A stretch of 64,000 bases of DNA from positions 15,753-79,752 of the IMG/VR virus record IMGVR_UViG_3300027780_000006. The stretch is one strand, 5' to 3'. Source of the DNA: a virus (taxonomy: Duplodnaviria; Caudoviricetes). Both the position numbers and the translations under genes were made by a program. Below the pieces are notes generated by a model, which saw only the letters and a program-made list of their open reading frames with translations, did no database searches and had not been told where the DNA came from. Each line of letters begins with the position of its first letter. Position 1 is the first letter of the stretch. Shown one piece after another: positions 544 through 13,904 of the stretch.

Positions 544-2100
544 ATGGCACAAACCATTAAAATCAAAAGAAGTAGTAGTTCCGCCGCTCCATCTTCCCTC
601 GGTGCTGGTGAATTAGCGTATTCATCAAATTCCAAAAAACTATTTGTAGGGCATCCCTCTACATCGGCAGTAACAACAATAGGCGGGGACTTATACGTCC
701 AAATGCTCGACCATACAGCAGGTACGCTAACAGCAGCTTCAGCAATAGTAGTAGATAGTTCATCTAAAATAGATGTATTAAAATCAGGTAACATAGTAGT
801 TACTGGTTCTAGTAATACTATTAGTACTAGTTCAGGCAATCTTACTCTAGCTCCCACAGGTAATTTAGTTATTACTCATGGCGGAACTATAGATTTAACA
901 GGTCAAGCAAATTCACTAACTCTATTAGACAATAACGCAGCAGCTTTAGATATAAACGAAGGCGGAACTTCATATTTAAAATTTGTTACTACTAATGGAA
1001 GTGAATCAACAACTGTAGGATCAGCATTAACAGTATCAGGACTAACTTCAGCAGCAGCTGTCAATATGTCTGGAAACTTAGCTATCGCTACAAACAAATT
1101 CACAGTAAATGCTAGTTCAGGTGATACTGTAATAGCAGGCGACTTAAATGTCGTTGATGTAACAGCAAGTGGTGATTTAGAAGTCACAGGTGGCACTACT
1201 CTTAACGGAGCAGTAAATATTGGTGACGCATCAGGAGATGCAATCGCAATTGCCGGTACAGCAACATTTACACCATCAGTAGACTTTGATGGTGGCTTTA
1301 CAGTTGCAGGGTCACAAACAGTTGACTTTGGAGGAAATAGACTTGCTAACATTGGCACTCCTACCCAAGCAACAGATGCTACAACAAAAGCATATGTAGA
1401 CAGCGTAAAACAAGCACTAGACATTAAAGAATCAGTAAGGGTAGCTACAGAAGCAGCTATTACTGGAACTTATGATAATGGTACTGGTGGTGTAGGTGCT
1501 ACATTAACATACGACTCCAACGGAGCTATAACTGTTGATGGACAAGCACTATTAATTAATAATAGAGTACTTGTTAAAAATCAATCAACCGCTACACAAA
1601 ACGGTATTTACTATGTAAGTACAGTAGGTAATGCAGGTGCAGCAGCAGTACTAACAAGAGCACTAGATGCGGATTCAAGTGCAGATGTAACAGGTGGACT
1701 ATTTACTTTCGTAGAAGAAGGTTCAACTAATGCAGATGCAGGTTTTGTTTTATCAAATGTTACAGGATCAGCAACACTAGGTACAGATGGTCTTACCTTT
1801 ACACAGTTCTCAGGAGCTGGACAAGTAGTAGCCGGAATAGGTTTAGCCAAATCAGGTAATACTATTTCAGTAAATGTTGATGATACTTCTATAGAAATAA
1901 ATTCAGATACTTTACAAATTAAAGGGTTAGACAACGCAATAGTAGAAGGTCAATTAATTTATGGAGCGAACACAGGTGGTTCGTTTACAACATTAAATAT
2001 TGGTTCTTATGACTCAACAAATTCAGTAGGACAAATGTTACAAGTCGGAGCAAACGGAACTGTAGCATGGTCAAACACATTAGACGGTGGAACATTCTAA
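544..2100 (+). CDS. Tail fibre protein with Mtd-like N-terminus
   Basis: MAQTIKIKRSS..GELAY N-terminus (major tropism determinant N-terminal-like); DATTKAYVD and RVLVKNQSTATQNGIY fibre motifs. Confidence 0.8.
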   Translation: MAQTIKIKRSSSSAAPSSLGAGELAYSSNSKKLFVGHPSTSAVTTIGGDLYVQMLDHTAGTLTAASAIVVDSSSKIDVLKSGNIVVTGSSNTISTSSGNLTLAPTGNLVITHGGTIDLTGQANSLTLLDNNAAALDINEGGTSYLKFVTTNGSESTTVGSALTVSGLTSAAAVNMSGNLAIATNKFTVNASSGDTVIAGDLNVVDVTASGDLEVTGGTTLNGAVNIGDASGDAIAIAGTATFTPSVDFDGGFTVAGSQTVDFGGNRLANIGTPTQATDATTKAYVDSVKQALDIKESVRVATEAAITGTYDNGTGGVGATLTYDSNGAITVDGQALLINNRVLVKNQSTATQNGIYYVSTVGNAGAAAVLTRALDADSSADVTGGLFTFVEEGSTNADAGFVLSNVTGSATLGTDGLTFTQFSGAGQVVAGIGLAKSGNTISVNVDDTSIEINSDTLQIKGLDNAIVEGQLIYGANTGGSFTTLNIGSYDSTNSVGQMLQVGANGTVAWSNTLDGGTF

Positions 2101-2642: not shown

Positions 2643-5600
2643 ATGTCACTCATAGGAAAAAGTAATGCATTAGTCTCCTCACTTGAGGCGAATGCAGTAG
2701 GTACTACTGAAATAGTAAGTAATTCAATTACAGCAAGTGAAATAGCAGCTAACGCAGTAGGCTCATCAGAAATAGCACTTAACGCAGTAGATACTCTACA
2801 AATTGCAACTAACGCAGTTGGAGCAGCACAATTACAAGGAGCCGCAGTAACCGCAGTAGGAGATAATGCTATCAACGCAGCAGCAATAGCAGCTAACTCA
2901 GTAGATTCTTCAGAATTAGTAAGTGGTAGTATAGATAGTATACACATCGGCACAGGACAAATAATTACATCAAAGATCGCTAATAATAATGTAACTTCAG
3001 GACAACTAGCAAGTAATTCAGTAGTAGCAAGACACATAGCTGCTAATGCTATAGGAACAAGTGAAATAGCCTTAAACTCGGTAGATTCATCAGAATTAGT
3101 AAGTGGTAGTATAGACACTATACATGTCGCGAACTTACAAATAACATCAGACAAACTAGCAGCTAACTCAGTAGTAGCCGCAAAAATAGCGGAAAATGCA
3201 GTAGGTACTAGTGAACTTGCTAATAACTCTGTAACTGCTACACAGATTCCTTCAGGAACAATAGTAGCAGACCTACTAGCCGCAAACTCAGTAGATTCAT
3301 CAGAACTAGTTACAGGTAGTATTGATACAATACATCTTGGAGACTTACAAGTAACATCTGGTAAAATAGCCGCTGGTGCAATAATAACTACAAAATTAGG
3401 AGCTAACCAAGTAACAGCAGCTAAGATAGCATCAGGAATTATTACTTCAGCCCATATAACAGACGGCACTATAGTGTCTGGAGATATAGCCGATAATACT
3501 ATAGCAACAGGTAAGATAGCGGATAACGCAGTAGATGGAAGTAAGATTGCTTCTAATAGTATTTTAACAAGACACATAGACGATGCACAGATTACAGCAG
3601 ATCAACTTGCTGCAAACTCTGTAGATACAGCAGAACTAGTAAGTGGCTCAATAGACGCCATACACCTAGCTTCTGATTCAGTTATAACAGCAAAAATACT
3701 AGACGCTAACGTAACAACAGCGAAGATAGCAGATAACGCAGTTACTGCCGCTAAGATTGCTGATGGAAGTATCACTAGCACTCAATTAGGTGCAAACTCA
3801 GTAGATACTGCAGAACTAGTATCAGGCTCAATAGACACAATACATATTGCAGACGACCAAGTAACAAATGCAAAACTTGCAGTAAATTCAGTCTCCGCAG
3901 TAGAACTAGCTGGAAATGCAGTAACAGCTACACAGATAGCAGCAAACGCTGTATCGGTAGCAGAACTTAAATCAGACGCATTAAGCGGACAGACAATGTC
4001 AGGTAATGTTACTTTCTCAGGAAACGTGACAGTATCAGGAACTTCATTCGCAGCTTCAGCTACAACAATTACAACTGGAGACTCTCTTATCTCAATGGCA
4101 ACTGGCAACGGAAGTTCAGATGCAGTTGATATAGGTTTCTATGGATTATACGATACTGGTGGTACAGACAAATATTCAGGTATATTCAGAAACGCAGATG
4201 ATTCTGGTAAATGGCAGATATTTAAAGACTTACAAGTACAACCAACTACAACTGTAAATACTTCAGGAACAGGATATGCAAAAGGTACGCTAGTAGCAGA
4301 TTTAGAAGGAAACGTAACAGGTAACTTAACAGGAACAGCTTCTGCAATAGCAGACAATTCAGTTACTTCAGCAAAAATTGCAAACGGTACCATAGTTGGT
4401 GTAGATATTGCAGCTGATGCAATAAACGGAACAAAAATTGCTGATGACTCTATAGATTCAGAACATTACGTAGATGGTAGTATAGATAATGCTCATATTG
4501 CAGACTTACAAGTAACAAACGCAAAAATAGCAAATAACACTATACAGACAGGTAAGATAGCAGATAACGCTGTAGATGGTACGAAGATTGCTCAAAATAG
4601 TATTTTAACAAGACATATCGATGACGCACAAATAGTACTAAGTCATCTAGCAGCTAACTCCGTAGACTCTTCAAAAATTGTCAATGGAACAATCGTAAAT
4701 GCAGATTTAGCAGATAACTCAATTACTTCGGCGAAGATTGTAAATGGTACTATAGTGTCCGGAGATATAGCAGCAAATACTATAGCAACAGGAAACATAG
4801 CAGACAACGCAGTAGACGGTACAAAAATAGCAACAGACAGTATAGTAGCAAGACATATAGCAGCTGGTGCAGTAGGCGCTTCAGAACTAGCATCAAACTC
4901 AGTAGATTCAGCAGAATTAGTGAGTGGTAGTATTGACACTATACATATTGCAGACGACCAAATAACAGCAGCTAAGATAGCAGATAATGCAATTAATAAT
5001 GTAGGTATGGTATCATCAGGATTAATTACCGCAGACTTATTAGCATCAAACTCAGTAGATTCAGCAGAACTAGTTACAGGTAGTATTGACACTATACATA
5101 TTGGAGCATCACAAGTAACAACAGCAAAGATTGCCAATGCTAATGTAACAAATGCAAAACTAGGAGATAACTCTGTAACAGCAGCTAAAATAGCCGCTAA
5201 CGCTGTCGGGTCAAGTGAGATTGCAAATAACTCTATAACAACTACACAATTATCAAGTGCAGCACTTGATGGTAAAAGCATGACCGGGAATATGGGGTTC
5301 GCTGGAGCTAATATCGGTCTTGGTAATGGCACTAGTGCTATAATTGAGGTAAAAGGTAAGTTAGGTATTCAAGATGCAAACCCAGTTCAAAAACTTCACA
5401 TAGACGAAGTAGCTGGTATGGATGTTGGTACAGGAGCTTCAACATCAACAACAGTATTTTCATTAGATACTTTTGCAGCAGCAACATTTAGAACTGCTAA
5501 GTACTTAGTACAGATAACAAATTCAACAGACGGTGATTACCAAGCGTTAGAAATAGCATTATTTCATGATGGTACCACAGTTTATTTAACACAGTACGCA

Positions 5601-5732
5601 TCTATATTTGACAACGGAGCACAAGCGACGTTTGATGCAGATATAAATACAGGTAATGTAAGATTAAGAGTAACTCCAGCAAGTGGAGATACTATGGCGT
5701 ATAAATTTATACGAACAACAATAGAGGTATAA
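2643..5732 (+). CDS. Long repetitive tail fibre protein
   Basis: 1029 aa of ~5-residue periodic repeats (IAANAV, SVDSSELVSGSIDTIHI, KIADNAVDGTKI), an internal non-repetitive segment, and a C-terminal beta domain (YLVQITNSTDGDYQALEI..NVRLRVTP). Confidence 0.8.
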   Translation: MSLIGKSNALVSSLEANAVGTTEIVSNSITASEIAANAVGSSEIALNAVDTLQIATNAVGAAQLQGAAVTAVGDNAINAAAIAANSVDSSELVSGSIDSIHIGTGQIITSKIANNNVTSGQLASNSVVARHIAANAIGTSEIALNSVDSSELVSGSIDTIHVANLQITSDKLAANSVVAAKIAENAVGTSELANNSVTATQIPSGTIVADLLAANSVDSSELVTGSIDTIHLGDLQVTSGKIAAGAIITTKLGANQVTAAKIASGIITSAHITDGTIVSGDIADNTIATGKIADNAVDGSKIASNSILTRHIDDAQITADQLAANSVDTAELVSGSIDAIHLASDSVITAKILDANVTTAKIADNAVTAAKIADGSITSTQLGANSVDTAELVSGSIDTIHIADDQVTNAKLAVNSVSAVELAGNAVTATQIAANAVSVAELKSDALSGQTMSGNVTFSGNVTVSGTSFAASATTITTGDSLISMATGNGSSDAVDIGFYGLYDTGGTDKYSGIFRNADDSGKWQIFKDLQVQPTTTVNTSGTGYAKGTLVADLEGNVTGNLTGTASAIADNSVTSAKIANGTIVGVDIAADAINGTKIADDSIDSEHYVDGSIDNAHIADLQVTNAKIANNTIQTGKIADNAVDGTKIAQNSILTRHIDDAQIVLSHLAANSVDSSKIVNGTIVNADLADNSITSAKIVNGTIVSGDIAANTIATGNIADNAVDGTKIATDSIVARHIAAGAVGASELASNSVDSAELVSGSIDTIHIADDQITAAKIADNAINNVGMVSSGLITADLLASNSVDSAELVTGSIDTIHIGASQVTTAKIANANVTNAKLGDNSVTAAKIAANAVGSSEIANNSITTTQLSSAALDGKSMTGNMGFAGANIGLGNGTSAIIEVKGKLGIQDANPVQKLHIDEVAGMDVGTGASTSTTVFSLDTFAAATFRTAKYLVQITNSTDGDYQALEIALFHDGTTVYLTQYASIFDNGAQATFDADINTGNVRLRVTPASGDTMAYKFIRTTIEV

Positions 5733-5958: not shown

Positions 5959-8900
5959 ATGGCAATATATGTAAACGATTCTGGTACATTACGACAAGTT
6001 AAGTTCCTCGCTGTAAATGATGGTGGGGTAGTTCGTCGTGTCAATGAAGTTTATGTAAATGATAATGGTTCTTTAGCCGGACCTTTTACAGCAACTCATG
6101 AGACTAGTAGGAATACAGCTACAACAACAAGTACAATTTCAGGAGTACAAAATACTGTATTTAATACAAATACTGTTTTTGATACAGACTACAATACTAC
6201 TACCACATTTGATACGTCTAAAGTTACAACTTTCAATACCACACTAGCAACTGCTACAGGCGCAACAACCACATTTGATACAACTACAACGTTCAATACT
6301 ACGGTATCAACAACAACTGCGTATAATACTACAACAGCTTTTACTACAACGACTACCTTTACAACAACTCAAGGTACAACGACTGCGTTTACAACTACTA
6401 CAGCATTTAATACAACTACAACGTTTAATACTACATTAGCAACAACAACAGCTTTTACTACTACTACAACGTTTGATACTACATTAGCAACAACAACTGC
6501 GTTTACTACTACAACTGCGTTTACTACAACTACTACCTTTACAACAACTCAAGGTACGACAACTGCGTTTACTACTACAACTGCGTTTACTACAACTACA
6601 ACGTTCAACACTACATTAGCAACAACAACTGCGTTTAGTACAACTACTACATTCATTACTAACAAAAATACGATTACTTCGTGGAATACCACAACAGCGT
6701 ATACTACAGCATATGATACTGTAATTGGTACAAGTAGGACAACTTCATTTGCTACTATTACATCTTATATAGATAATACATCTTTCGGAACAAGTAAAAG
6801 TACAAATACTACACAATCCACCTCTACCTCTAGAAGTACAAATACTGCTCAAGGCACAAACACAGTTACAACCTTTGCAACTATTACAGCTTATATAGAT
6901 AACACTACATTTGCTACTATTACTACCTTTGCTAATAATACATCATTTGCGACTATCAGTACATATAATACTACTAGAACCAGTAATACCGCTAGAAATA
7001 CTAATACAGTTACAGCTTATATTAATAATACTTCATTTGCTACTATTACTACTTATACTACTACACAGGGTACAGCTACTTCTAGAAGTACTAATACGGC
7101 TCAAAATACAAATACAAGTAATAACACAAATACTTCTACGGCTTATATAGCAGTTACAACCTTTGCTACTATTACAGCTTATAGTACTACACAAGGTACA
7201 AATACAAGTAATAGCACAAATACTTCTACGGCTTATATAGCAGGTACTAATACTTCTAGAGGTACAAATACAAGTAATAACACAAATACAGCTACAGCAT
7301 ATATAGCAAGTACTTCATTTGCTACGATTACTAGTTACACTACTTCGCAGGGTACAAATACAAGTAATAACACAAATACAGCTACAGCATATATAGCAGG
7401 TACAGCTACTTCTAGAAATACAAATACTGCAAGGTCTACTGGGTTTACTAACTCAACTGGTTTTACAAACTCCACAAATTCGACATGGGTGCATAATACA
7501 AATACAACAGGAGCTACAAATACTTCGAGAATTACTACATATAATACTGATTATATAGTAAGTTTTGATCCAGAAGCCGGTACAAACTTTGATGACAGAA
7601 GTACTAGCCGTAGTACAGCGTTTACTAACAATACAAACTTCTTAAACAGTACTAGTGGTATATATGGAGTAAATACAAGTACTTCTAGAAATACAAATAC
7701 TTCTCGTAATACTGCATTTACTAACTCAACTGGTTTTACTAACAATACAAATACAAGTAATAACACAAATACTTCTACAGCGTATATTAATAATACAGCT
7801 TTCGGAACAAGTAGAAGTACTAATACGGCTCAAAATACAAATACAAGTAATAATACAAATACTGTTACAGCGTATATTAATAACACAGCTTTTACTAACA
7901 ATACAAATACCGCTAATAATACAGCTACTATTACAGCTTATATTAATAACACATCATTTGGAACAAGTAGAAGTACTAATACGGCTCAAAATACAAATAC
8001 AAGTAATAACACAAATACTTCTACGGCTTATATAGCAAGTACTTCATTTGCTACTATTACAGCTTATATTAATAACACATCATTTGGAACAAGTAGAAGT
8101 ACTAATACTTCACAGGGTACAGCTACAAGTAATAACACAAATACTTCTACGGCTTATATAGATAATACAGCTTTTGCAACAACTATAAGTACTAATACTA
8201 CTCAAAGCACTGCGACATCAGCAACTACTAATACTACTCAAGCCACTAATACTGCTAGAAGTACAAATACAGCACAAACTACGACTACAACTACTACCTT
8301 TGCAACTATAACGGCTTATATAGATAATACTACATTTGCTACTATTAGTTCTTATACTACTACACAAGCTACGAGTACTGCTAGAAGTACAAATACTTCA
8401 CAAGCCACAGCATATGAAACAGCGTATATTACATCTAGAGCATCTTCAAGATCTACAGGAACTTCACAAGCAACTCTAACTACATATAATACTGCTAGAG
8501 CTACAGCTTCAAGTAGAAGCACAACAACAACTTTTGCAACAACTCAAGGTACTGTAACAACAAGAGCAACGGCTTCAAGTAGAACAACAACAACAGCTTT
8601 TGATACTGATAGAGCTACAGCTTCAAGTAGAAATACAGCGTCAAGTAGAAGTACAACGACAACTTTTAATACTACTCTAGCTACAGCGTCAAGTAGAAGT
8701 ACAACGACAACTTTTGCAACAACTCAAGGTACTGTAACAACAAGAGCTACAGCATCAAGTAGAACAACAACAACAGCTTTTGATACTGATAGAGCTACAG
8801 CTTCAAGTAGAAGTACAGCTTCAAGTAGAAGTACAGTAAGTACTTTTAATACAACAAGAGCAACAGCAACATCGAATGTAACTGGATTTAATACTGTTAC

Positions 8901-9150
8901 AACTTTTGATACGACTAAGACAACAACTTTTGCTACAGGTAGAACAACAACAACAACAATTGCAACTACATTAGCAACAGAAACAAACAAAACAACTGAT
9001 CACTTAACAACAACAACTTTTGATACTTCAACAACAGTATTTGAAAGAATAACCGCCGCCCAAGCAGGAACCATATTTGACACAGAGGTTGCTAGTATAG
9101 CAGACTTTGGACTATCTTATTGGGATGGCTCAGACTGGAGCGAAACCTAA
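5959..9150 (+). CDS. Thr/Asn-rich low-complexity fibre protein (mirror-symmetric)
   Basis: 1063-aa ORF with adaptor-like N-terminus (MAIYVNDSGTLRQVK..VYVNDNG) and ~6-aa Thr-rich units. Last fibre gene of the late operon, where T5 has its L-shaped fibre gene. Confidence 0.8.
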   Translation: MAIYVNDSGTLRQVKFLAVNDGGVVRRVNEVYVNDNGSLAGPFTATHETSRNTATTTSTISGVQNTVFNTNTVFDTDYNTTTTFDTSKVTTFNTTLATATGATTTFDTTTTFNTTVSTTTAYNTTTAFTTTTTFTTTQGTTTAFTTTTAFNTTTTFNTTLATTTAFTTTTTFDTTLATTTAFTTTTAFTTTTTFTTTQGTTTAFTTTTAFTTTTTFNTTLATTTAFSTTTTFITNKNTITSWNTTTAYTTAYDTVIGTSRTTSFATITSYIDNTSFGTSKSTNTTQSTSTSRSTNTAQGTNTVTTFATITAYIDNTTFATITTFANNTSFATISTYNTTRTSNTARNTNTVTAYINNTSFATITTYTTTQGTATSRSTNTAQNTNTSNNTNTSTAYIAVTTFATITAYSTTQGTNTSNSTNTSTAYIAGTNTSRGTNTSNNTNTATAYIASTSFATITSYTTSQGTNTSNNTNTATAYIAGTATSRNTNTARSTGFTNSTGFTNSTNSTWVHNTNTTGATNTSRITTYNTDYIVSFDPEAGTNFDDRSTSRSTAFTNNTNFLNSTSGIYGVNTSTSRNTNTSRNTAFTNSTGFTNNTNTSNNTNTSTAYINNTAFGTSRSTNTAQNTNTSNNTNTVTAYINNTAFTNNTNTANNTATITAYINNTSFGTSRSTNTAQNTNTSNNTNTSTAYIASTSFATITAYINNTSFGTSRSTNTSQGTATSNNTNTSTAYIDNTAFATTISTNTTQSTATSATTNTTQATNTARSTNTAQTTTTTTTFATITAYIDNTTFATISSYTTTQATSTARSTNTSQATAYETAYITSRASSRSTGTSQATLTTYNTARATASSRSTTTTFATTQGTVTTRATASSRTTTTAFDTDRATASSRNTASSRSTTTTFNTTLATASSRSTTTTFATTQGTVTTRATASSRTTTTAFDTDRATASSRSTASSRSTVSTFNTTRATATSNVTGFNTVTTFDTTKTTTFATGRTTTTTIATTLATETNKTTDHLTTTTFDTSTTVFERITAAQAGTIFDTEVASIADFGLSYWDGSDWSET

Positions 9151-9151
9151 T

Positions 9152-9316
9152 ATGATAAAGAATAAAGCAGAAGATATTACACCAGATTATCTTAATAAAA
9201 AACTGGAATCAATGATGGCGGCTGTGTTCGATGTCATTGGTGAATCTGAAGAAAGAATGAAAAACTTAGAAAAACAACTTTTCGAGCTAAAGAATGCAAA
9301 ACAGAACAACAGTTAA
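9152..9316 (+). CDS. Small coiled-coil protein (possible fibre chaperone)
   Basis: Start moved to the ATG at 9152, just after the fibre stop codon; heptad-like EERMKNLEKQLFELK. Confidence 0.5.
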   Translation: MIKNKAEDITPDYLNKKLESMMAAVFDVIGESEERMKNLEKQLFELKNAKQNNS

Positions 9317-10196
9317 ACCTAAAAATCCGTTAAAAGCTATGACAATAAATGAGTCTTTGGGAGATGTCGCAACTCATTTTATGAAATCAGGTTCTTGTTT
9401 TAGACCAAAAGGTGATTTAGACAGCTTATCAATACTAAAAGAAAGATTAGTATTTGATAAAACTGAGGGGCTTGATTGGGAGTATGACCTTTGGTTTAAC
9501 ACCAATGAGTTACATAGTATTCGTAAATGGTTGTACACAGATTTTTTAGGAAAAGGAGTAGCTTGTAGAGTTAACTCTATAAAGATTAATACAAAATTAT
9601 ATAAAGCGATTATTGATTCAGATGTAAAGATTGATGAAGAAAGAATCGAAAAAATAAAAAATAATCTACAAAACAAGTATACTTTAAGATGGAATACAGA
9701 ATTTTATGATAAAGTTATTTTCTTACCAGGAAGTAATTTATTATGTAAAGGAACAGTAATAGATTACAGACGAGTACAGAAACTAGTAGATGAGGGGTAT
9801 GTAATAAAGCCTCATCCAATTACTGCTCATATTTATATAGCGGATTTAAGAAGACGATTTGGTACAGAAAAAGTACTAGACAAAAAAGAAGGTGGCTACG
9901 AATTATTATTAAATAGTAAAGAAGTAGCAGCAGCACCTAATAGCGAGATGGGATTAATAGCAATCCTTCTTCGCAAAAAACTTTCTCTTGTTAGCTACCC
10001 TAAAGTAGACCGAGAGAAAAACTTATTAACTTATGAGAGTTTCTATGATACAATATCAGGAAGTAACTCATACCTTGCACTTTGTAAGATATTTTCAGCA
10101 AAAAACTCTGGAATAATCTTTGAATTTGACGAAGATGCGGAAGATAGACTACAAGCGTATGTCAATAACTTTTGGGAATATAAAAAAATAAAATGA
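9294..10196 (+). CDS. KpsS/KpsC-like (GT-B) glycosyltransferase-like protein
   Basis: IKPHP and NSEMGLIAILLRKKL match the KxHP and NStvGlEAll.gK motifs of capsule-biosynthesis KpsC/KpsS proteins. Confidence 0.55.
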   Translation: MQNRTTVKPKNPLKAMTINESLGDVATHFMKSGSCFRPKGDLDSLSILKERLVFDKTEGLDWEYDLWFNTNELHSIRKWLYTDFLGKGVACRVNSIKINTKLYKAIIDSDVKIDEERIEKIKNNLQNKYTLRWNTEFYDKVIFLPGSNLLCKGTVIDYRRVQKLVDEGYVIKPHPITAHIYIADLRRRFGTEKVLDKKEGGYELLLNSKEVAAAPNSEMGLIAILLRKKLSLVSYPKVDREKNLLTYESFYDTISGSNSYLALCKIFSAKNSGIIFEFDEDAEDRLQAYVNNFWEYKKIK

Positions 10197-11140
10197 TAGA
10201 AGTAGTTCACCCCTATAAAAAAGTATGGAGTATGTATACTCTAGCATCACTCCTGCCCGACAAAGAAAAAATAAGGTTACATTTATACATACACGAAGAT
10301 GACTGGGCGGAGGCACCAGTAGAATGGATACTAGAAAACTTTCCTACTGTAAAGATTTATCAAACTTTTTGGTTAAAAAATCAATTAGCGACAACAATGT
10401 GTCATTTATTAGACCATTGGAAAGATAAAGGTGGTTTACATAAAAGAATAGTTTGGCTTGGTGGTAATAATATCATTAGTGGTAGATGGTCTGATAATCT
10501 ACCAGGACCAGACTTTTTTCAATCAGTTTCATACTTAGCACATAAAAGAGTATTCAGAAAGCATCCTAGATTTTTAGACTTCTACAGAATTTTAAGAATA
10601 GCAATTAATGAACAGAAACCAGAAAATATAAGCACAGAATTTGCATTATTGAATTACGACCTATTAAAAAACTTTGACCCAGCAGAATTATTTTGCCCTA
10701 CTGAAACAGATGAGCTAGAGACTAGAGTACCAGGGATGCCTGCAATAGACAGATTATTATATAAGTGTAGGGATGAAGCATTTGTTTCAAAATTACTTTC
10801 ATATCAACACAAATTTATGCCACTATACATGACAGGTCAAAATGATGTTTTAATAGAGAAAGACGCGATGGGTCCTCTGGACTGTATTAACTATAATGTA
10901 ATGCTTAGAAAATCTTTCCAACTTAATATAGAACATAAATGGTTAATCAAACCATATTTAGATTTACCTACAGGAGTGCAATTATCATTGCCATGGGATA
11001 TGTATTCCAATTTAATAAGTAGCATACCTGTTAATCACAGAAATGCTATTAATAATGAAATTTTATTATTGAAATCAGCAAAACAGAAAAGAGCTGCTGG
11101 ATCTTTATTAAAAGCTGGGTTTAAACTAGGAAAGATCTAA
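10193..11140 (+). CDS. Putative GT-A fold glycosyltransferase-like protein
   Basis: Rossmann-like start (YTLASLL..IRLHLYIH) and RIVWLGGNNII where GT8-like proteins have lylDaD; the DxD motif is degenerate. Confidence 0.35.
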   Translation: MIEVVHPYKKVWSMYTLASLLPDKEKIRLHLYIHEDDWAEAPVEWILENFPTVKIYQTFWLKNQLATTMCHLLDHWKDKGGLHKRIVWLGGNNIISGRWSDNLPGPDFFQSVSYLAHKRVFRKHPRFLDFYRILRIAINEQKPENISTEFALLNYDLLKNFDPAELFCPTETDELETRVPGMPAIDRLLYKCRDEAFVSKLLSYQHKFMPLYMTGQNDVLIEKDAMGPLDCINYNVMLRKSFQLNIEHKWLIKPYLDLPTGVQLSLPWDMYSNLISSIPVNHRNAINNEILLLKSAKQKRAAGSLLKAGFKLGKI

Positions 11141-11755
11141 AAATTCTTCTTTCAAGTCTGAAAGAATATTCCATTTTAATCTGCCCCTGTTTGCAAGCTC
11201 TCTAACTATTTTTGTTTCAGAGGGATTGTGAGGGGTCTTTTTCATACTATTCACCGGCATATGCCAACTAGCGGGATAATCTTCTCCAGTTGAGAAAGGT
11301 AACTTCTTAGCAAAGAAATCAAAACCAATAATCTCTAAACTTTCAAACTCACACTTATTTAGTATATACATAATAGCCAGGAAACCTGCGGAGGGTCTGC
11401 CTCCATCTGGCACCTTATTTATTGTACCAATCAAATCAAATATCTCTAGTATTTCTTCATCAGTAAACATATCAGTATAATCAAATCCTGGTAGTATTTT
11501 TGTATTGGGAGGTATGTCCATATGTATTCGACATCGGTTGAATAAAACTTTTACGTTTTTAAACTTTTTATAATACTGTTGTCTTAAGAAACCTGTAACC
11601 CACATATCGGTTTTTTTACCTATCGAGACGAAATTTTCATTCGTAGGTATACCTTTTCCAAATCTAACAATTGTGTCAAAACTGTCAATATATTGTCCAT
11701 TTTCGTACTGAAGCATTTCTACTGAATTTCCCACTAATATTACTCGTCCTAGCAT
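11126..11755 (-). CDS. GT29 (sialyltransferase)-like glycosyltransferase
   Basis: VILVGNS..IDSFDTIVRF..GKKTD resembles sialyl motif L; RPSAGFLAI..IIGFDFF resembles motif S; ends with H..E (PHNPSE). Confidence 0.7.
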   Translation of the reverse strand: MLGRVILVGNSVEMLQYENGQYIDSFDTIVRFGKGIPTNENFVSIGKKTDMWVTGFLRQQYYKKFKNVKVLFNRCRIHMDIPPNTKILPGFDYTDMFTDEEILEIFDLIGTINKVPDGGRPSAGFLAIMYILNKCEFESLEIIGFDFFAKKLPFSTGEDYPASWHMPVNSMKKTPHNPSETKIVRELANRGRLKWNILSDLKEEFLDLS

Positions 11756-11765
11756 AATTATATTC

Positions 11766-12365
11766 CTAATAGTTTGGTATTATCATACCAGATTTTTTGA
11801 TCATTTCTTTTAGAGATTGAACCTCTTGATAGTTTGCATGTGCTTGGATAGTTATTTCAGGTATCTCTATACCTGGGTGTGCTGTAATTAAGTAATAACA
11901 TACATTTGCAACGTCTTGCGAAGTTAAGCTAGGTATTTCCTCGTGGTTTAACAAACCTAAATTGATTGTAGTAAGTTTGTACCTTTTTTCTGAATTGTAT
12001 GTTAAATTATTACTTAAATGGTTTAAAGAAGATTTCTGAGCTGCGTATAGATATCCTTTAGATATGTTTGGTTGAGACGCACGAGAAGAAAAATTTATGA
12101 TTTGTTTTGTTTTATCATATCTCCAGGCTTCGTGGGCTATTGCTAATATTTTTGTTTGGTCGAAGTCATTGTGTGCAAAATTAATTAGCACATCTACATG
12201 GTTAGGATTAATATTATCAAATCCATACCAATTAACATCATTCATTAAAATATCCTCAATACGCGGAGTATCTACTTTAATCATTTTACCTTTGAATGGT
12301 GTTGCTTCTAATGTGTCTTTGATAGTTTTTGCGAGACCACTACTTCCTGTTATTGCTATTTTCAT
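11766..12365 (-). CDS. Short-chain dehydrogenase/NAD-dependent epimerase-like protein
   Basis: MKIAITGSSGLA Rossmann motif, DVLINFA, IINFSS and the YxxxK catalytic motif (YAAQK). Confidence 0.8.
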   Translation of the reverse strand: MKIAITGSSGLAKTIKDTLEATPFKGKMIKVDTPRIEDILMNDVNWYGFDNINPNHVDVLINFAHNDFDQTKILAIAHEAWRYDKTKQIINFSSRASQPNISKGYLYAAQKSSLNHLSNNLTYNSEKRYKLTTINLGLLNHEEIPSLTSQDVANVCYYLITAHPGIEIPEITIQAHANYQEVQSLKEMIKKSGMIIPNY

Positions 12366-13260
12366 AATATTCCTTTATAATGTCAAATGACTGTTTGCCG
12401 AATAGATTACCATCTACACTGCACTTGTTACAAGGAGACATACTTCTATCTCCTTTTATTAATTTTTTTCTTATTTTGTTCATTGGTTTACCAAACCATA
12501 CATTGTGTAATGTATCTTGCAGTAAATTTCCCACAACATGTTCCCTTCCCCAGTCATTTGAGCAAAATAGAACATCTCCATTCCAGTCAACAAACATTTT
12601 ATAGAAGGGATAATGACAAGGTTTCCCTTTCAAAGCAGTTACACTAGATTCTTCTATACCTACCCAATCGATGACCCCGCTACGGTTGTTAAGTAATAGA
12701 CCATGGTTTTCAAAGTCACCCCAATGCATGCGATATTTATACTTATCTTCAGGTATGTTTTTCATTACTTCTTCAAAGTGAGTCATTTGCTCTATACCAT
12801 CGTACAGATTAATATAAATTAAGTCTAACCCACTATATTCAAATAGTTCTTCTGCGTATGCTTGGGTTAATTTATCTCCATTAGTGTTACACTCTAAAGT
12901 TGCTAATGGGATTGTATGTCGAAAGATATGAACTATCTCTCTGAAATTTGGATTAAGTAAATTCTCTCCGAACCCACTTAAAGATATTTTACCACTAAAC
13001 CCTATTTTTCCTAATTCATTCCCTATTATTTCTGCACCTTTTATAGTTAAGTGTAGATTTCGATTAGGAAAAACTTCTGGGTTGTGTCGTGGACAGAATA
13101 CACAAGTTCTATTACACAACTCGGTAGTATTTATTTCAACAGTAAGGATAGAATCTAGTTCATTTAAGTTATCTTTCTTTGCCCAATGTTTCTTTTCTTG
13201 TTCACGTCTGTGTTCTAGAAAATCATATTGGTCTACTGCTGTTATTGGGATGTTTTTCAT
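12340..13260 (-). CDS. Radical SAM protein with SPASM/Twitch domain
   Basis: CNRTCVFC (CX3CX2C), GFGENLL, and C-terminal CHYPF..DWNGDVLFCSNDW..CNKC. Confidence 0.9.
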   Translation of the reverse strand: MKNIPITAVDQYDFLEHRREQEKKHWAKKDNLNELDSILTVEINTTELCNRTCVFCPRHNPEVFPNRNLHLTIKGAEIIGNELGKIGFSGKISLSGFGENLLNPNFREIVHIFRHTIPLATLECNTNGDKLTQAYAEELFEYSGLDLIYINLYDGIEQMTHFEEVMKNIPEDKYKYRMHWGDFENHGLLLNNRSGVIDWVGIEESSVTALKGKPCHYPFYKMFVDWNGDVLFCSNDWGREHVVGNLLQDTLHNVWFGKPMNKIRKKLIKGDRSMSPCNKCSVDGNLFGKQSFDIIKEYYENSNNRK

Positions 13261-13904
13261 TACAAAGTGTTATATAATTCTGTCCACTCTTTGCAATACT
13301 CCTCATGGTCGTAAATTCCCATCCACGGCCCTCCATCTGTAAAGTGTACCCCTTTAGCTCTACTACCAAAATCGTAATAGTTTACTAAAGCATTGTAAGC
13401 AGCAGGTAAAGAACCTACCTTACTAGCCCAGCTAAATCCATGTAAATGTTTAGCCGCAGCATTATTTACATACCATTCGTTTAGCATCGTACATTCTTTA
13501 TTGTTGAAATACATCAACGATGACCAATATTTTTTATTATATGGTTTGTTCAATTTATCATGCATTTTAGTGTATTGGTCAAACACTAAGTCAGCATGTT
13601 GTACACACATAACTTCTTCATTGTCTTTCTTAAAATGAGTTATTTCCTGGGGATCACATCTCCATAGAAAGTCACCATCACAGAATAAAGAATATCCCAT
13701 ATAATTAGAAAGATGAGGAACAAGAAATCTAGTAAAAGCAAATTCGGTATTACCCTTTTCCTTTCTAGTATAAAGTCCTTGTTCCTGTAACTCTGAAGTA
13801 ATCAAAGGTATAACTTCGTGTGTTGGGTTAAATCGTAAGATTGATGCCTTACACACTTCAAACATTTCAGGATATTGTGAATCGTACCCTACAAATATTT
13901 TCAT
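13260..13904 (-). CDS. GT8-like glycosyltransferase
   Basis: MKIFVGYD..TEFAFTRFLVP..FCDGDFL..WSSLMYFN..WN/HFTDGGPW motifs. Confidence 0.8.
   Translation of the reverse strand: MKIFVGYDSQYPEMFEVCKASILRFNPTHEVIPLITSELQEQGLYTRKEKGNTEFAFTRFLVPHLSNYMGYSLFCDGDFLWRCDPQEITHFKKDNEEVMCVQHADLVFDQYTKMHDKLNKPYNKKYWSSLMYFNNKECTMLNEWYVNNAAAKHLHGFSWASKVGSLPAAYNALVNYYDFGSRAKGVHFTDGGPWMGIYDHEEYCKEWTELYNTL

Follow-up and report, generated by a model that had tools for sequence, protein, structure and literature searches.

Phage fibres are conventionally parallel trimers with N-terminal attachment and C-terminal host recognition, and to our knowledge the short needle of T4 gp37 (PDB 2XGF) is the only well-known fibre element in which the chain runs out and back. 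Thr ladders are found in insect antifreeze and bacterial ice-nucleation repeats, which are parallel solenoids with constant coils of 12-16 amino acids (aa). The window analysed here is a 64,000-nucleotide stretch, bases 15753-79752 of a 79.7-kb IMG/VR virus record (CheckV completeness 76%), and contains a gene for a Thr-rich protein of 1063 aa whose whole shaft is likely, as judged from comparison with homologous sequences, to form a single intrachain beta-hairpin acting as a side tail fibre of a siphovirus. A prediction made earlier from the window alone (the original prediction) had described a mirror-like order of repeat blocks in this protein, and had proposed that its two halves pair antiparallel into a thin fibre with a central loop as the tip.

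In T4 gp37, D10 comprises residues 811-881 plus 1010-1026 and D11 comprises residues 882-1009, with the tip mid-sequence and both segments returning to the collar, and seven Fe ions, with His residues as ligands, hold the structure together (PMC6957217). The present protein is alike in its proposed out-and-back chain and as a thin, beta-structured and putatively receptor-binding fibre. It differs in scale, since the gp37 needle has ~60 residues per arm and forms the last part of a 1026-aa chain, whereas in the present family the whole shaft would be involved, with ~300-1500 residues per arm. The needle has HxH motifs and Fe, whereas the present protein has three His residues (47, 512 and 1015) and no HxH motif, and the needle has no counterpart of a Thr-Thr ladder with aromatic/Arg-Gln-Lys rungs. 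No sequence similarity to the gp37 C-terminal region or collar (gp12/gp10-like) was detected in Pfam, PHROG and PDB searches, and homology to gp37 was rejected on the lack of a sequence match and of HxH.

Siphovirus side fibres such as lambda Stf and T5 pb1/LtfA are parallel trimers with a C-terminal receptor-binding or chaperone domain, and have been sorted into RBPseg classes (PMC12143355). The present protein resembles them in its place distal to a J-like central fibre and in being long and rich in repeats, variable in length, and conserved at the attachment end, and differs in that its C terminus is as conserved as its N terminus and the variable part is the midpoint; an S74 chaperone domain was not detected in it with Pfam. 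With Thr-ladder solenoids it shares TxT arrays, a flat Thr ladder on one face, and a repetitive, Thr-rich and Pro-poor sequence, but the solenoids have a constant coil length, whereas here the spacing is irregular and has a partner in mirror order in the other half. Tentaclins, which are C-type lectin plus Ig-domain proteins, were considered and found to be unrelated. Literature searches, which were not exhaustive, returned no account of a Thr-rich fibre that folds back or is mirror-symmetric, and an entire shaft built as one register-perfect hairpin appears to be absent from the families, structures and papers found. What would be new is the scale, the explicit pairing code and the compensatory evolution of length; the gp37 needle already shows the principle on a small scale.

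Layout of the fibre protein

The gene and the parts of its product are as follows.

5959..9150, plus strand: fibre gene (P0001), an open reading frame (ORF) of 1063 aa plus stop
5959..6147, plus strand: N-terminal base module, aa 1-63, with three ~14-aa 'IYVNDxGTLRxV' units at aa 1-45
6148..6738, plus strand: outer block of the N arm, aa 64-260, with Phe at each 6 or 10 residues
6739..7566, plus strand: inner block of the N arm, aa 261-536, of ATITAY/INNTSF/GTSRST/NTSNNT-type hexads
7567..7584, plus strand: central turn D537-P-E-A-G-T542, a predicted chignolin-type pi-turn at the symmetry centre
7585..8412, plus strand: inner block of the C arm, aa 543-818, partner of aa 261-536
8413..9003, plus strand: outer block of the C arm, aa 819-1015, of Arg-rich RATASSR/RSTTTTF units
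9004..9147, plus strand: C-terminal base module, aa 1016-1063 (...FERITAAQAGTIFDTEV...SYWDGSDWSET)

The protein consists of 36.9% Thr, 11.1% Asn, 10.8% Ala and 10.7% Ser, with Pro at positions 42 and 538 only and no Cys. The central loop (SFDPEAGTNFDDR) begins at residue 535 of 1063, near the midpoint, and the outer TTQG/NTTLA-type and inner ATITAY/INNTSF/GTSRST-type blocks lie where the original prediction had placed them, although the symmetry at the level of residues far exceeds the block-level impression on which that prediction was based. Residues 3-45 of the N-terminal module match phrog_13729 (function unknown, 190-aa profile) at E 3.8e-8, which suggests a putative attachment module common to shorter phage proteins. 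Arg is absent from the N arm between aa 52 and 259, and the outer block of that arm closes with the junction motif AY..AYDTVIGTSR; the outer block of the C arm opens with the junction motif TAYETAYITSRASSR. In the alignment of C-terminal modules, E, R, G, T, EV, W, DG and W are invariant.

Tandem DNA arrays with a 180-nucleotide (nt) unit cover aa 107-235 and 843-970, the mirror image of the first being 844-972, and arrays with a 156-nt unit lie at mirrored positions (aa 382-490 and 592-692). Residue types alternate strictly across ~475 residues of each arm: in the window protein, aromatic residues occupy only even positions over ~60-544 and only odd positions over 555-1021, with Thr on the parity of the aromatics and Ile, Val, Leu and Ala on the opposite parity. 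A parity shift at the loop as a feature of the family was rejected, since the centre is of even length in the L004 subgroup, with no net flip. Aromatic spacings run through 4, 6, 8, 10 ... 42, and the repeats have sub-periods of 16 and 22 aa (6+10 and 6+6+10).

No long inverted repeat was found in the DNA of the fibre gene, so the symmetry exists at the protein level only, and a DNA palindrome was rejected as its cause, the self-complementary words being short and centred on TCTAGA only. TCTAGA (inside ...ACTTCTAGAAGTAC..., encoding T-S-R-S-T) repeats often over window positions 6825-8396 and underlies every 'inverted repeat' found; its recurrence is probably a by-product of codon usage.

Homologs and mirror register

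Direct searches failed because of the Thr bias: the whole protein matched no Pfam or PHROGs family at E<=0.01, a homologous-protein search with it returned nothing, and PDB sequences gave no match to the profile of the fibre family (the best hit, at E 1.5, was to an unrelated protein). When a C-terminal-domain profile was run against 1.84 billion representatives, it returned fragments plus one spurious repeat protein (P0006) and no new full-length members. Relatives were reached instead via the downstream 300-aa gene, which as a handle gave 70 viral-contig loci, ~66 of them with a Thr-rich ORF immediately 5' of it. These syntenic homologs included 39 complete distinct proteins of 668-3108 aa, the shortest being L021:2357-4360, all with a conserved N terminus of ~45 aa (three IYVNDxGTLRxV units), a conserved C terminus of ~45 aa, and a middle of very variable length.

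For register scoring, residues were divided into large (F, Y, W, R, K, Q, L, H and M) and other, and phi was computed without gaps between residue i and residue c-i, where L is the protein length. Scoring aromatic against aromatic or Arg alone left c-L = 0, 6 and 16 inseparable in the window protein, and adding Gln, Leu, Lys, His and Met resolved them. The best mirror register was at c = L+15 to L+18 in all 39 homologs and the window protein, with phi 0.76-0.96 in most clades and 0.40-0.59 in two. For the window protein, phi was 0.84 between i and 1079-i over ~470 ungapped pairs, with c-L = 16 in nearly all 70-aa segments; L015 gave 0.96, and the longest homolog (L054:512-9835, 3108 aa) gave 0.89 across ~1490 pairs in one ungapped mirror register.

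Second-best mirror registers reached phi ~0.5, and the best direct (non-mirror) register of 500 offsets reached 0.52-0.78 across proteins. Shuffling the C arm in hexad blocks gave 0.30 ± 0.03 (maximum 0.44, 300 shuffles) for the window protein and 0.23 ± 0.02 for L054, the nulls being ~0.2-0.35 overall. In chimeric pairings of arms, phi fell to 0.4-0.8 when the N arm was joined to the C arm of a relative differing by insertions or deletions (indels), and stayed at 0.91 for arms from relatives without indels. A parallel beta-solenoid with a TxT ladder was rejected on this evidence, as neither a constant coil nor a direct register was observed (direct phi 0.65 vs mirror 0.84 in the window protein) and Pfam gave no match.

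Matched arms and mirrored indels

In every homolog the irregular centre falls between 0.48 and 0.52 of the length, and the two arms are equal in length to within 1-2 residues over L = 756-3108 aa. With P as the position of Pro in the D-P-E-x-G-T turn, 2P-L is 12 or 13 in eleven distinct proteins (L 756-1063 aa), 11 in L034 (1191 aa) and 10 in L054 (3108 aa); it is 15-17 in two clades other than the D-P-E-x-G-T clades, and -19 in the outlier L036. Across homologs, the N arm carries the junction motif ...IGTSR and the C arm TAYETAY.TSR; the positions of the two junctions add up to L+16 in 11 proteins and to L+17 in the L042 clade. By these junction and turn landmarks, the outer and inner blocks are each length-matched separately; the outer block of the window protein is 60 aa longer than that of the L004 subgroup in each arm.

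The original prediction had held that changes in length would need paired expansions in both halves. The matched arm lengths bear this out, as do pairwise alignments of close relatives, in which paired indels of equal size were found (given below as size at distance from the centre).

L005/L006: N arm, -10 at -102 and -4 at -72; C arm, -4 at +71 and -10 at +100
L018/L010: N arm, -2 at -78 and +4 at -57; C arm, +4 at +53 and -2 at +77
L022/L023: N arm, +8 at -221 and +4 at -31; C arm, +4 at +25 and +8 at +211
L037/L038: N arm, -20 and -6; C arm, -6 and -20
L004/L010 (98.6% identical): one 42-aa indel per arm

Nearly every indel is even in size, which preserves the in/out alternation of the strand. 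Comparison of the homologs thus establishes, at the level of sequence, that the two halves are matched as antiparallel partners at single-residue register, and that the match is kept by selection through compensatory indels.

Pairing across the proposed ribbon

Written out as a hairpin, the window protein has two distinct faces. One carries 114 Thr-Thr pairs, interspersed with F-R (16), Y-R (10), F-Q (10), Q-F (8), R-F (5), L-F (4) and similar pairs; the other carries small residues only, with Ile opposite Asn, Ala or Ser. In rungs where both residues are large, one partner is aromatic and the other is Arg, Gln or Lys, with counts as follows.

Window protein: rule kept in 64/66 rungs; both partners aromatic in 1 (expected 15.5), neither in 1 (expected 15.5)
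L054 (3108 aa): rule kept in 220/221 rungs; both partners aromatic in 0 (expected 47.9), neither in 1 (expected 48.9)

The rule of one aromatic per rung also holds in all 11 clade representatives, and at the junctions it is seen under c = 1079 in the pairs Y248-R831, Y252-R827 and R260-Y819. Rung spacing is irregular (4, 6, 10...), yet is duplicated exactly in the partner arm. Such exclusive aromatic complementarity is what would be expected of side chains touching across two antiparallel strands; the rule could also reflect a packed interface.

Turn, tip and ends

The centre, F536-D-P-E-A-G-T542, reads as an aromatic-flanked six-residue pi-turn of the chignolin type. In chignolin (GYDPETGTWG) the pi-turn spans Asp3-Thr8 (PMC9054626), from which D537 is predicted to lie opposite T542. 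The sum of these positions, 537+542 = 1079, equals L+16, which is also the register that the arms and the junction motifs give independently. The agreement with chignolin is one of sequence and register only. The shared elements with chignolin and the C-terminal hairpin of GB1 are the aromatic-D-P-E-x-G-T motif and the Asp-Thr closing pair; chignolin is a designed peptide of 10 residues, whereas the present turn would cap a natural ribbon of ~475 pairs. Turn and arm registers are also exactly equal in L014 and L019, and differ by one residue in the L004 subgroup, where a bulge is probable. Other clades have different acidic/Gly turns at the centre.

Within the clade of the window protein, mean pairwise identity is 93% for N termini (69-87% to other clades) and 96% for C termini, and falls to ~45% in the stretches of 20 residues that flank the turn. 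The central loop had been suspected of being hypervariable, and this is so for the apex and for ~20 residues either side, whereas the turn scaffold is conserved, F-D-P-E-x-G-T being invariant in the clade save at the apex, which is A, G, N, Q or F. An ordinary fibre has the reverse pattern; conservation at both ends and variability at the midpoint fit a fold-back fibre in which both termini would be virion-proximal.

In the L042 clade (L042:1791-5204, L043:6409-9858 and L051:6430-9843), a Tyr/Gly/Trp-rich insertion of ~40 aa (...YYYNRITTVYWSSGGNYYSNWGGG...) is located exactly at the tip, and may be a small added knob with a putative receptor-binding role.

Proposed fold-back model

In this model, the chain would run out for ~475 residues, turn back at D537-P-E-A-G-T542, and return as an antiparallel strand in perfect register, with residue i facing 1079-i. 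Folding back would bring the N-terminal (aa 1-~63) and C-terminal (aa ~1016-1063) modules together at the virion-proximal end and make the turn the distal tip. One face of the ribbon would present a Thr-Thr ladder with a complementary aromatic + Arg/Gln/Lys pair about every third rung, and the other small residues only; length would evolve by tandem duplication, with selection retaining only changes matched at the mirror position. The antiparallel pairing of the halves that had been proposed earlier is supported by the mirror register, the mirrored indels and the rung pairing, and the comparative evidence points to an out-and-back topology with a mid-sequence tip.

We infer that the mirror pairing is intrachain and that the hairpins would bundle, most likely as a trimer by analogy with the T4 gp37 needle, giving a six-stranded tube. 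The small-residue face would suit the narrow core of such a tube, its placement on the inside being a guess. From 474 pairs at 0.30-0.33 nm each, the ribbon would be ~140-160 nm long, so the earlier figure of up to ~180 nm stands as an upper bound slightly above the present estimate. The hypervariable distal region would contact the host as a putative receptor tip.

Several observations weigh against this model. The 39 homologs are related sequences of about ten clades and not 39 independent tests, and the fibre protein was found in no cultured phage, whether by megablast and tblastn with the whole protein, which returned no relatives, or by searches with the end modules (no significant match; best E 0.09 and 0.3). 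An AlphaFold 2 (AF2) monomer prediction with a 25-sequence alignment contained no hairpin and was uninformative, with a mean predicted local distance difference test (pLDDT) score of 31. Phi is lower, at 0.59, in L070/L072. The L057-L068 clade (e.g. L058:97-4374; 1371-1426 aa) keeps register only over the proximal ~350 residues (to about aa 400) and then loses it; units of 21 aa, an odd length, are confined to the N arm of these proteins (...NTGLAAVNT...), whose centre is rich in aromatics and lacks Pro (FTYSYFSYFGG...), and with register lost past about aa 400 their distal third may be differently built. Lastly, unpaired indels of 20-40 aa occur inside repeat arrays in L034/L036, L057/L058 and L067/L068. 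Unpaired indels were seen solely between contigs at least 99.9% identical, as would be expected if repeats had collapsed in short-read assembly or if slippage had happened very recently and had not been compensated. Outside the deletion L036 has a register of +16, and within it one of -14 (16 minus 30), a shift as expected of one loop-out.

A fuller version of the model, which we put forward tentatively and regard as doubtful in its entirety, would be a free-standing or trimer-bundled ribbon of ~300-1500 pairs (about 0.1-0.45 micrometre), by far the longest continuous beta-hairpin known, coded by Thr:Thr and aromatic:Arg/Gln/Lys pairs, evolving like an RNA stem, and with its exposed Thr ladder decorated with ulosonic or nonulosonic acid by a co-inherited CMP-sugar-transferase-like enzyme. 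If extended, the ribbon of L054 would reach about 0.45 micrometre. A fold-back shaft, if true, would be a new way of building a long thin protein rod, and an unusually clear natural example of a protein whose length evolves by compensation, like compensatory changes in RNA stems. Its simple rules (Thr:Thr ladder, aromatic:Arg/Gln rungs, chignolin cap) would be attractive for the engineering of protein nanomaterials, and the family offers a hard benchmark for structure predictors, given the failed AF2 monomer prediction. For phage annotation, it would mean that a host-range determinant can sit mid-gene in a fibre.

Alternative arrangements

Pairing between molecules would produce the same covariation between i and c-i and the same mirrored indels, if two or more extended chains lay antiparallel about a two-fold axis at mid-chain, with no fold-back, a doubled length, and an N/C module at each end. 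We judge this improbable, since a canonical, autonomous hairpin turn occupies the symmetry centre and its D/T pairing gives exactly the register of the arms, the centre accepts insertions of up to ~40 aa (L042 clade), as a free tip could but the middle of a zipper could hardly, and it is not obvious how a fibre whose two ends are identical would sit on a tail.

A second arrangement, with each half forming its own beta-solenoid or beta-helix rod and the rods lying side by side, joined at the tip, would involve no strand pairing at the level of residues. Sub-periods of 16 and 22 aa are typical of solenoid coils, and rods of equal length would favour mirrored indels of whole coils. The mirrored indels include sizes of 2, 4, 6, 8 and 10 residues, far below the size of a coil and nearly all even, however, and the single-residue register with strictly exclusive aromatic/Arg-Gln-Lys pairing, the exact match of irregular rung spacing in the partner arm, and the lower scores of direct-repeat registers make this arrangement very improbable.

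For a phage fibre the default expectation is a parallel trimer of the ordinary kind (triple beta-helix or beta-spiral), in which case the symmetry would be a by-product of low complexity, and the Thr-rich repeats of period 6 do yield many partial self-matches; with block-shuffled and direct-register controls well under the mirror score, and with the paired indels, constant c-L over a 4.6-fold range of length, conserved C terminus and variable centre left unexplained, we give it almost no credence. A disordered, mucin-like and heavily glycosylated tether, which 37% Thr, 11% Ser, a glycosyltransferase-like neighbour and low AF2 confidence might recall, is hardly believable for a protein with Pro nearly absent (2/1063) and strict residue alternation over ~475 residues per arm, as disorder would impose neither residue-level covariation nor compensatory indels.

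Genomic context and neighbouring genes

Upstream, the record encodes a tail assembly chaperone, a tape measure of 1355 aa, minor tail proteins and a J-like central fibre of 2472 aa (L073), and the J-like central fibre is followed on the same strand by two fibre-like genes and then by the fibre ORF, an order that places the fibre gene in the side-tail-fibre position of a siphovirus tail module. The remainder of the window is a minus-strand replication module, with a DNA polymerase ~46% identical to polymerases of T5-like siphoviruses. The virus would accordingly be an uncultivated siphovirus with a distant relationship to T5-like phages, and the protein putatively its side tail fibre. The neighbouring features are as follows.

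544..2100, plus strand: fibre- or decoration-like protein, 518 aa, with PHROG matches to tail fiber and head decoration families
2643..5732, plus strand: repetitive tail-fibre protein, 1029 aa, matching phrog_892 (E 1e-104) and phrog_28766 (E 1e-68), both tail fiber protein
9294..10196, plus strand: retaining beta-Kdo-glycosyltransferase-like gene, 300 aa, directly 3' of the fibre gene and always adjacent to it (homologs L003-L072)
10193-11140, plus strand: ORF of 315 aa, co-directional with the fibre and glycosyltransferase-like genes, with no Pfam or PHROG match
11126-13904, minus strand: gene cluster beside the fibre locus, with members given below

An AF2 model of the 300-aa neighbour (pLDDT 79.5) gave WbbB, KpsC and KrkA as best Foldseek matches (E 5e-5 to 1e-3, prob 1.0), and VIA gave Z 8-9 over 216-228 residues, with the top 15 matches all in the beta-Kdo family and generic GT-B folds at Z ~6. 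The protein is thus predicted to have the modified GT-B fold of WbbB (GT99) and KpsC (GT107). K172-P-H174-P175-I-T is invariant in 18 sequences of its family, and this KPHPIT segment appears to match the HP motif of the beta-Kdo family, in which His protonates the CMP leaving group. Beta-Kdo glycosyltransferases have an invariant QXXXD with a nucleophilic Asp (PMC10148158); no conserved QXXXD was found by sequence in the 300-aa family, which has a partly conserved Q-x-x-x-E136 and an invariant D139 ahead of a strand. Sequence identity to WbbB, KpsC and KrkA is only 11-15%, and their acceptor is a glycan, whereas that of the 300-aa protein would be a protein if the fibre is modified. By its predicted activity, it could be a candidate fibre-modifying enzyme, a host-glycan enzyme or an assembly factor. 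Mycobacteriophages are known to encode glycosylation of their own virion proteins, and the beta-Kdo-transferase-like fold of the neighbour makes glycosylation of the fibre possible.

The minus-strand cluster contains a 209-aa ORF with a Glyco_transf_29 (sialyltransferase) match at E 1e-6, which is a GT29-like fragment, a 306-aa radical-SAM/SPASM protein, and a weak PglD_N/SDR-like ORF, and may be a sugar-modification pathway.

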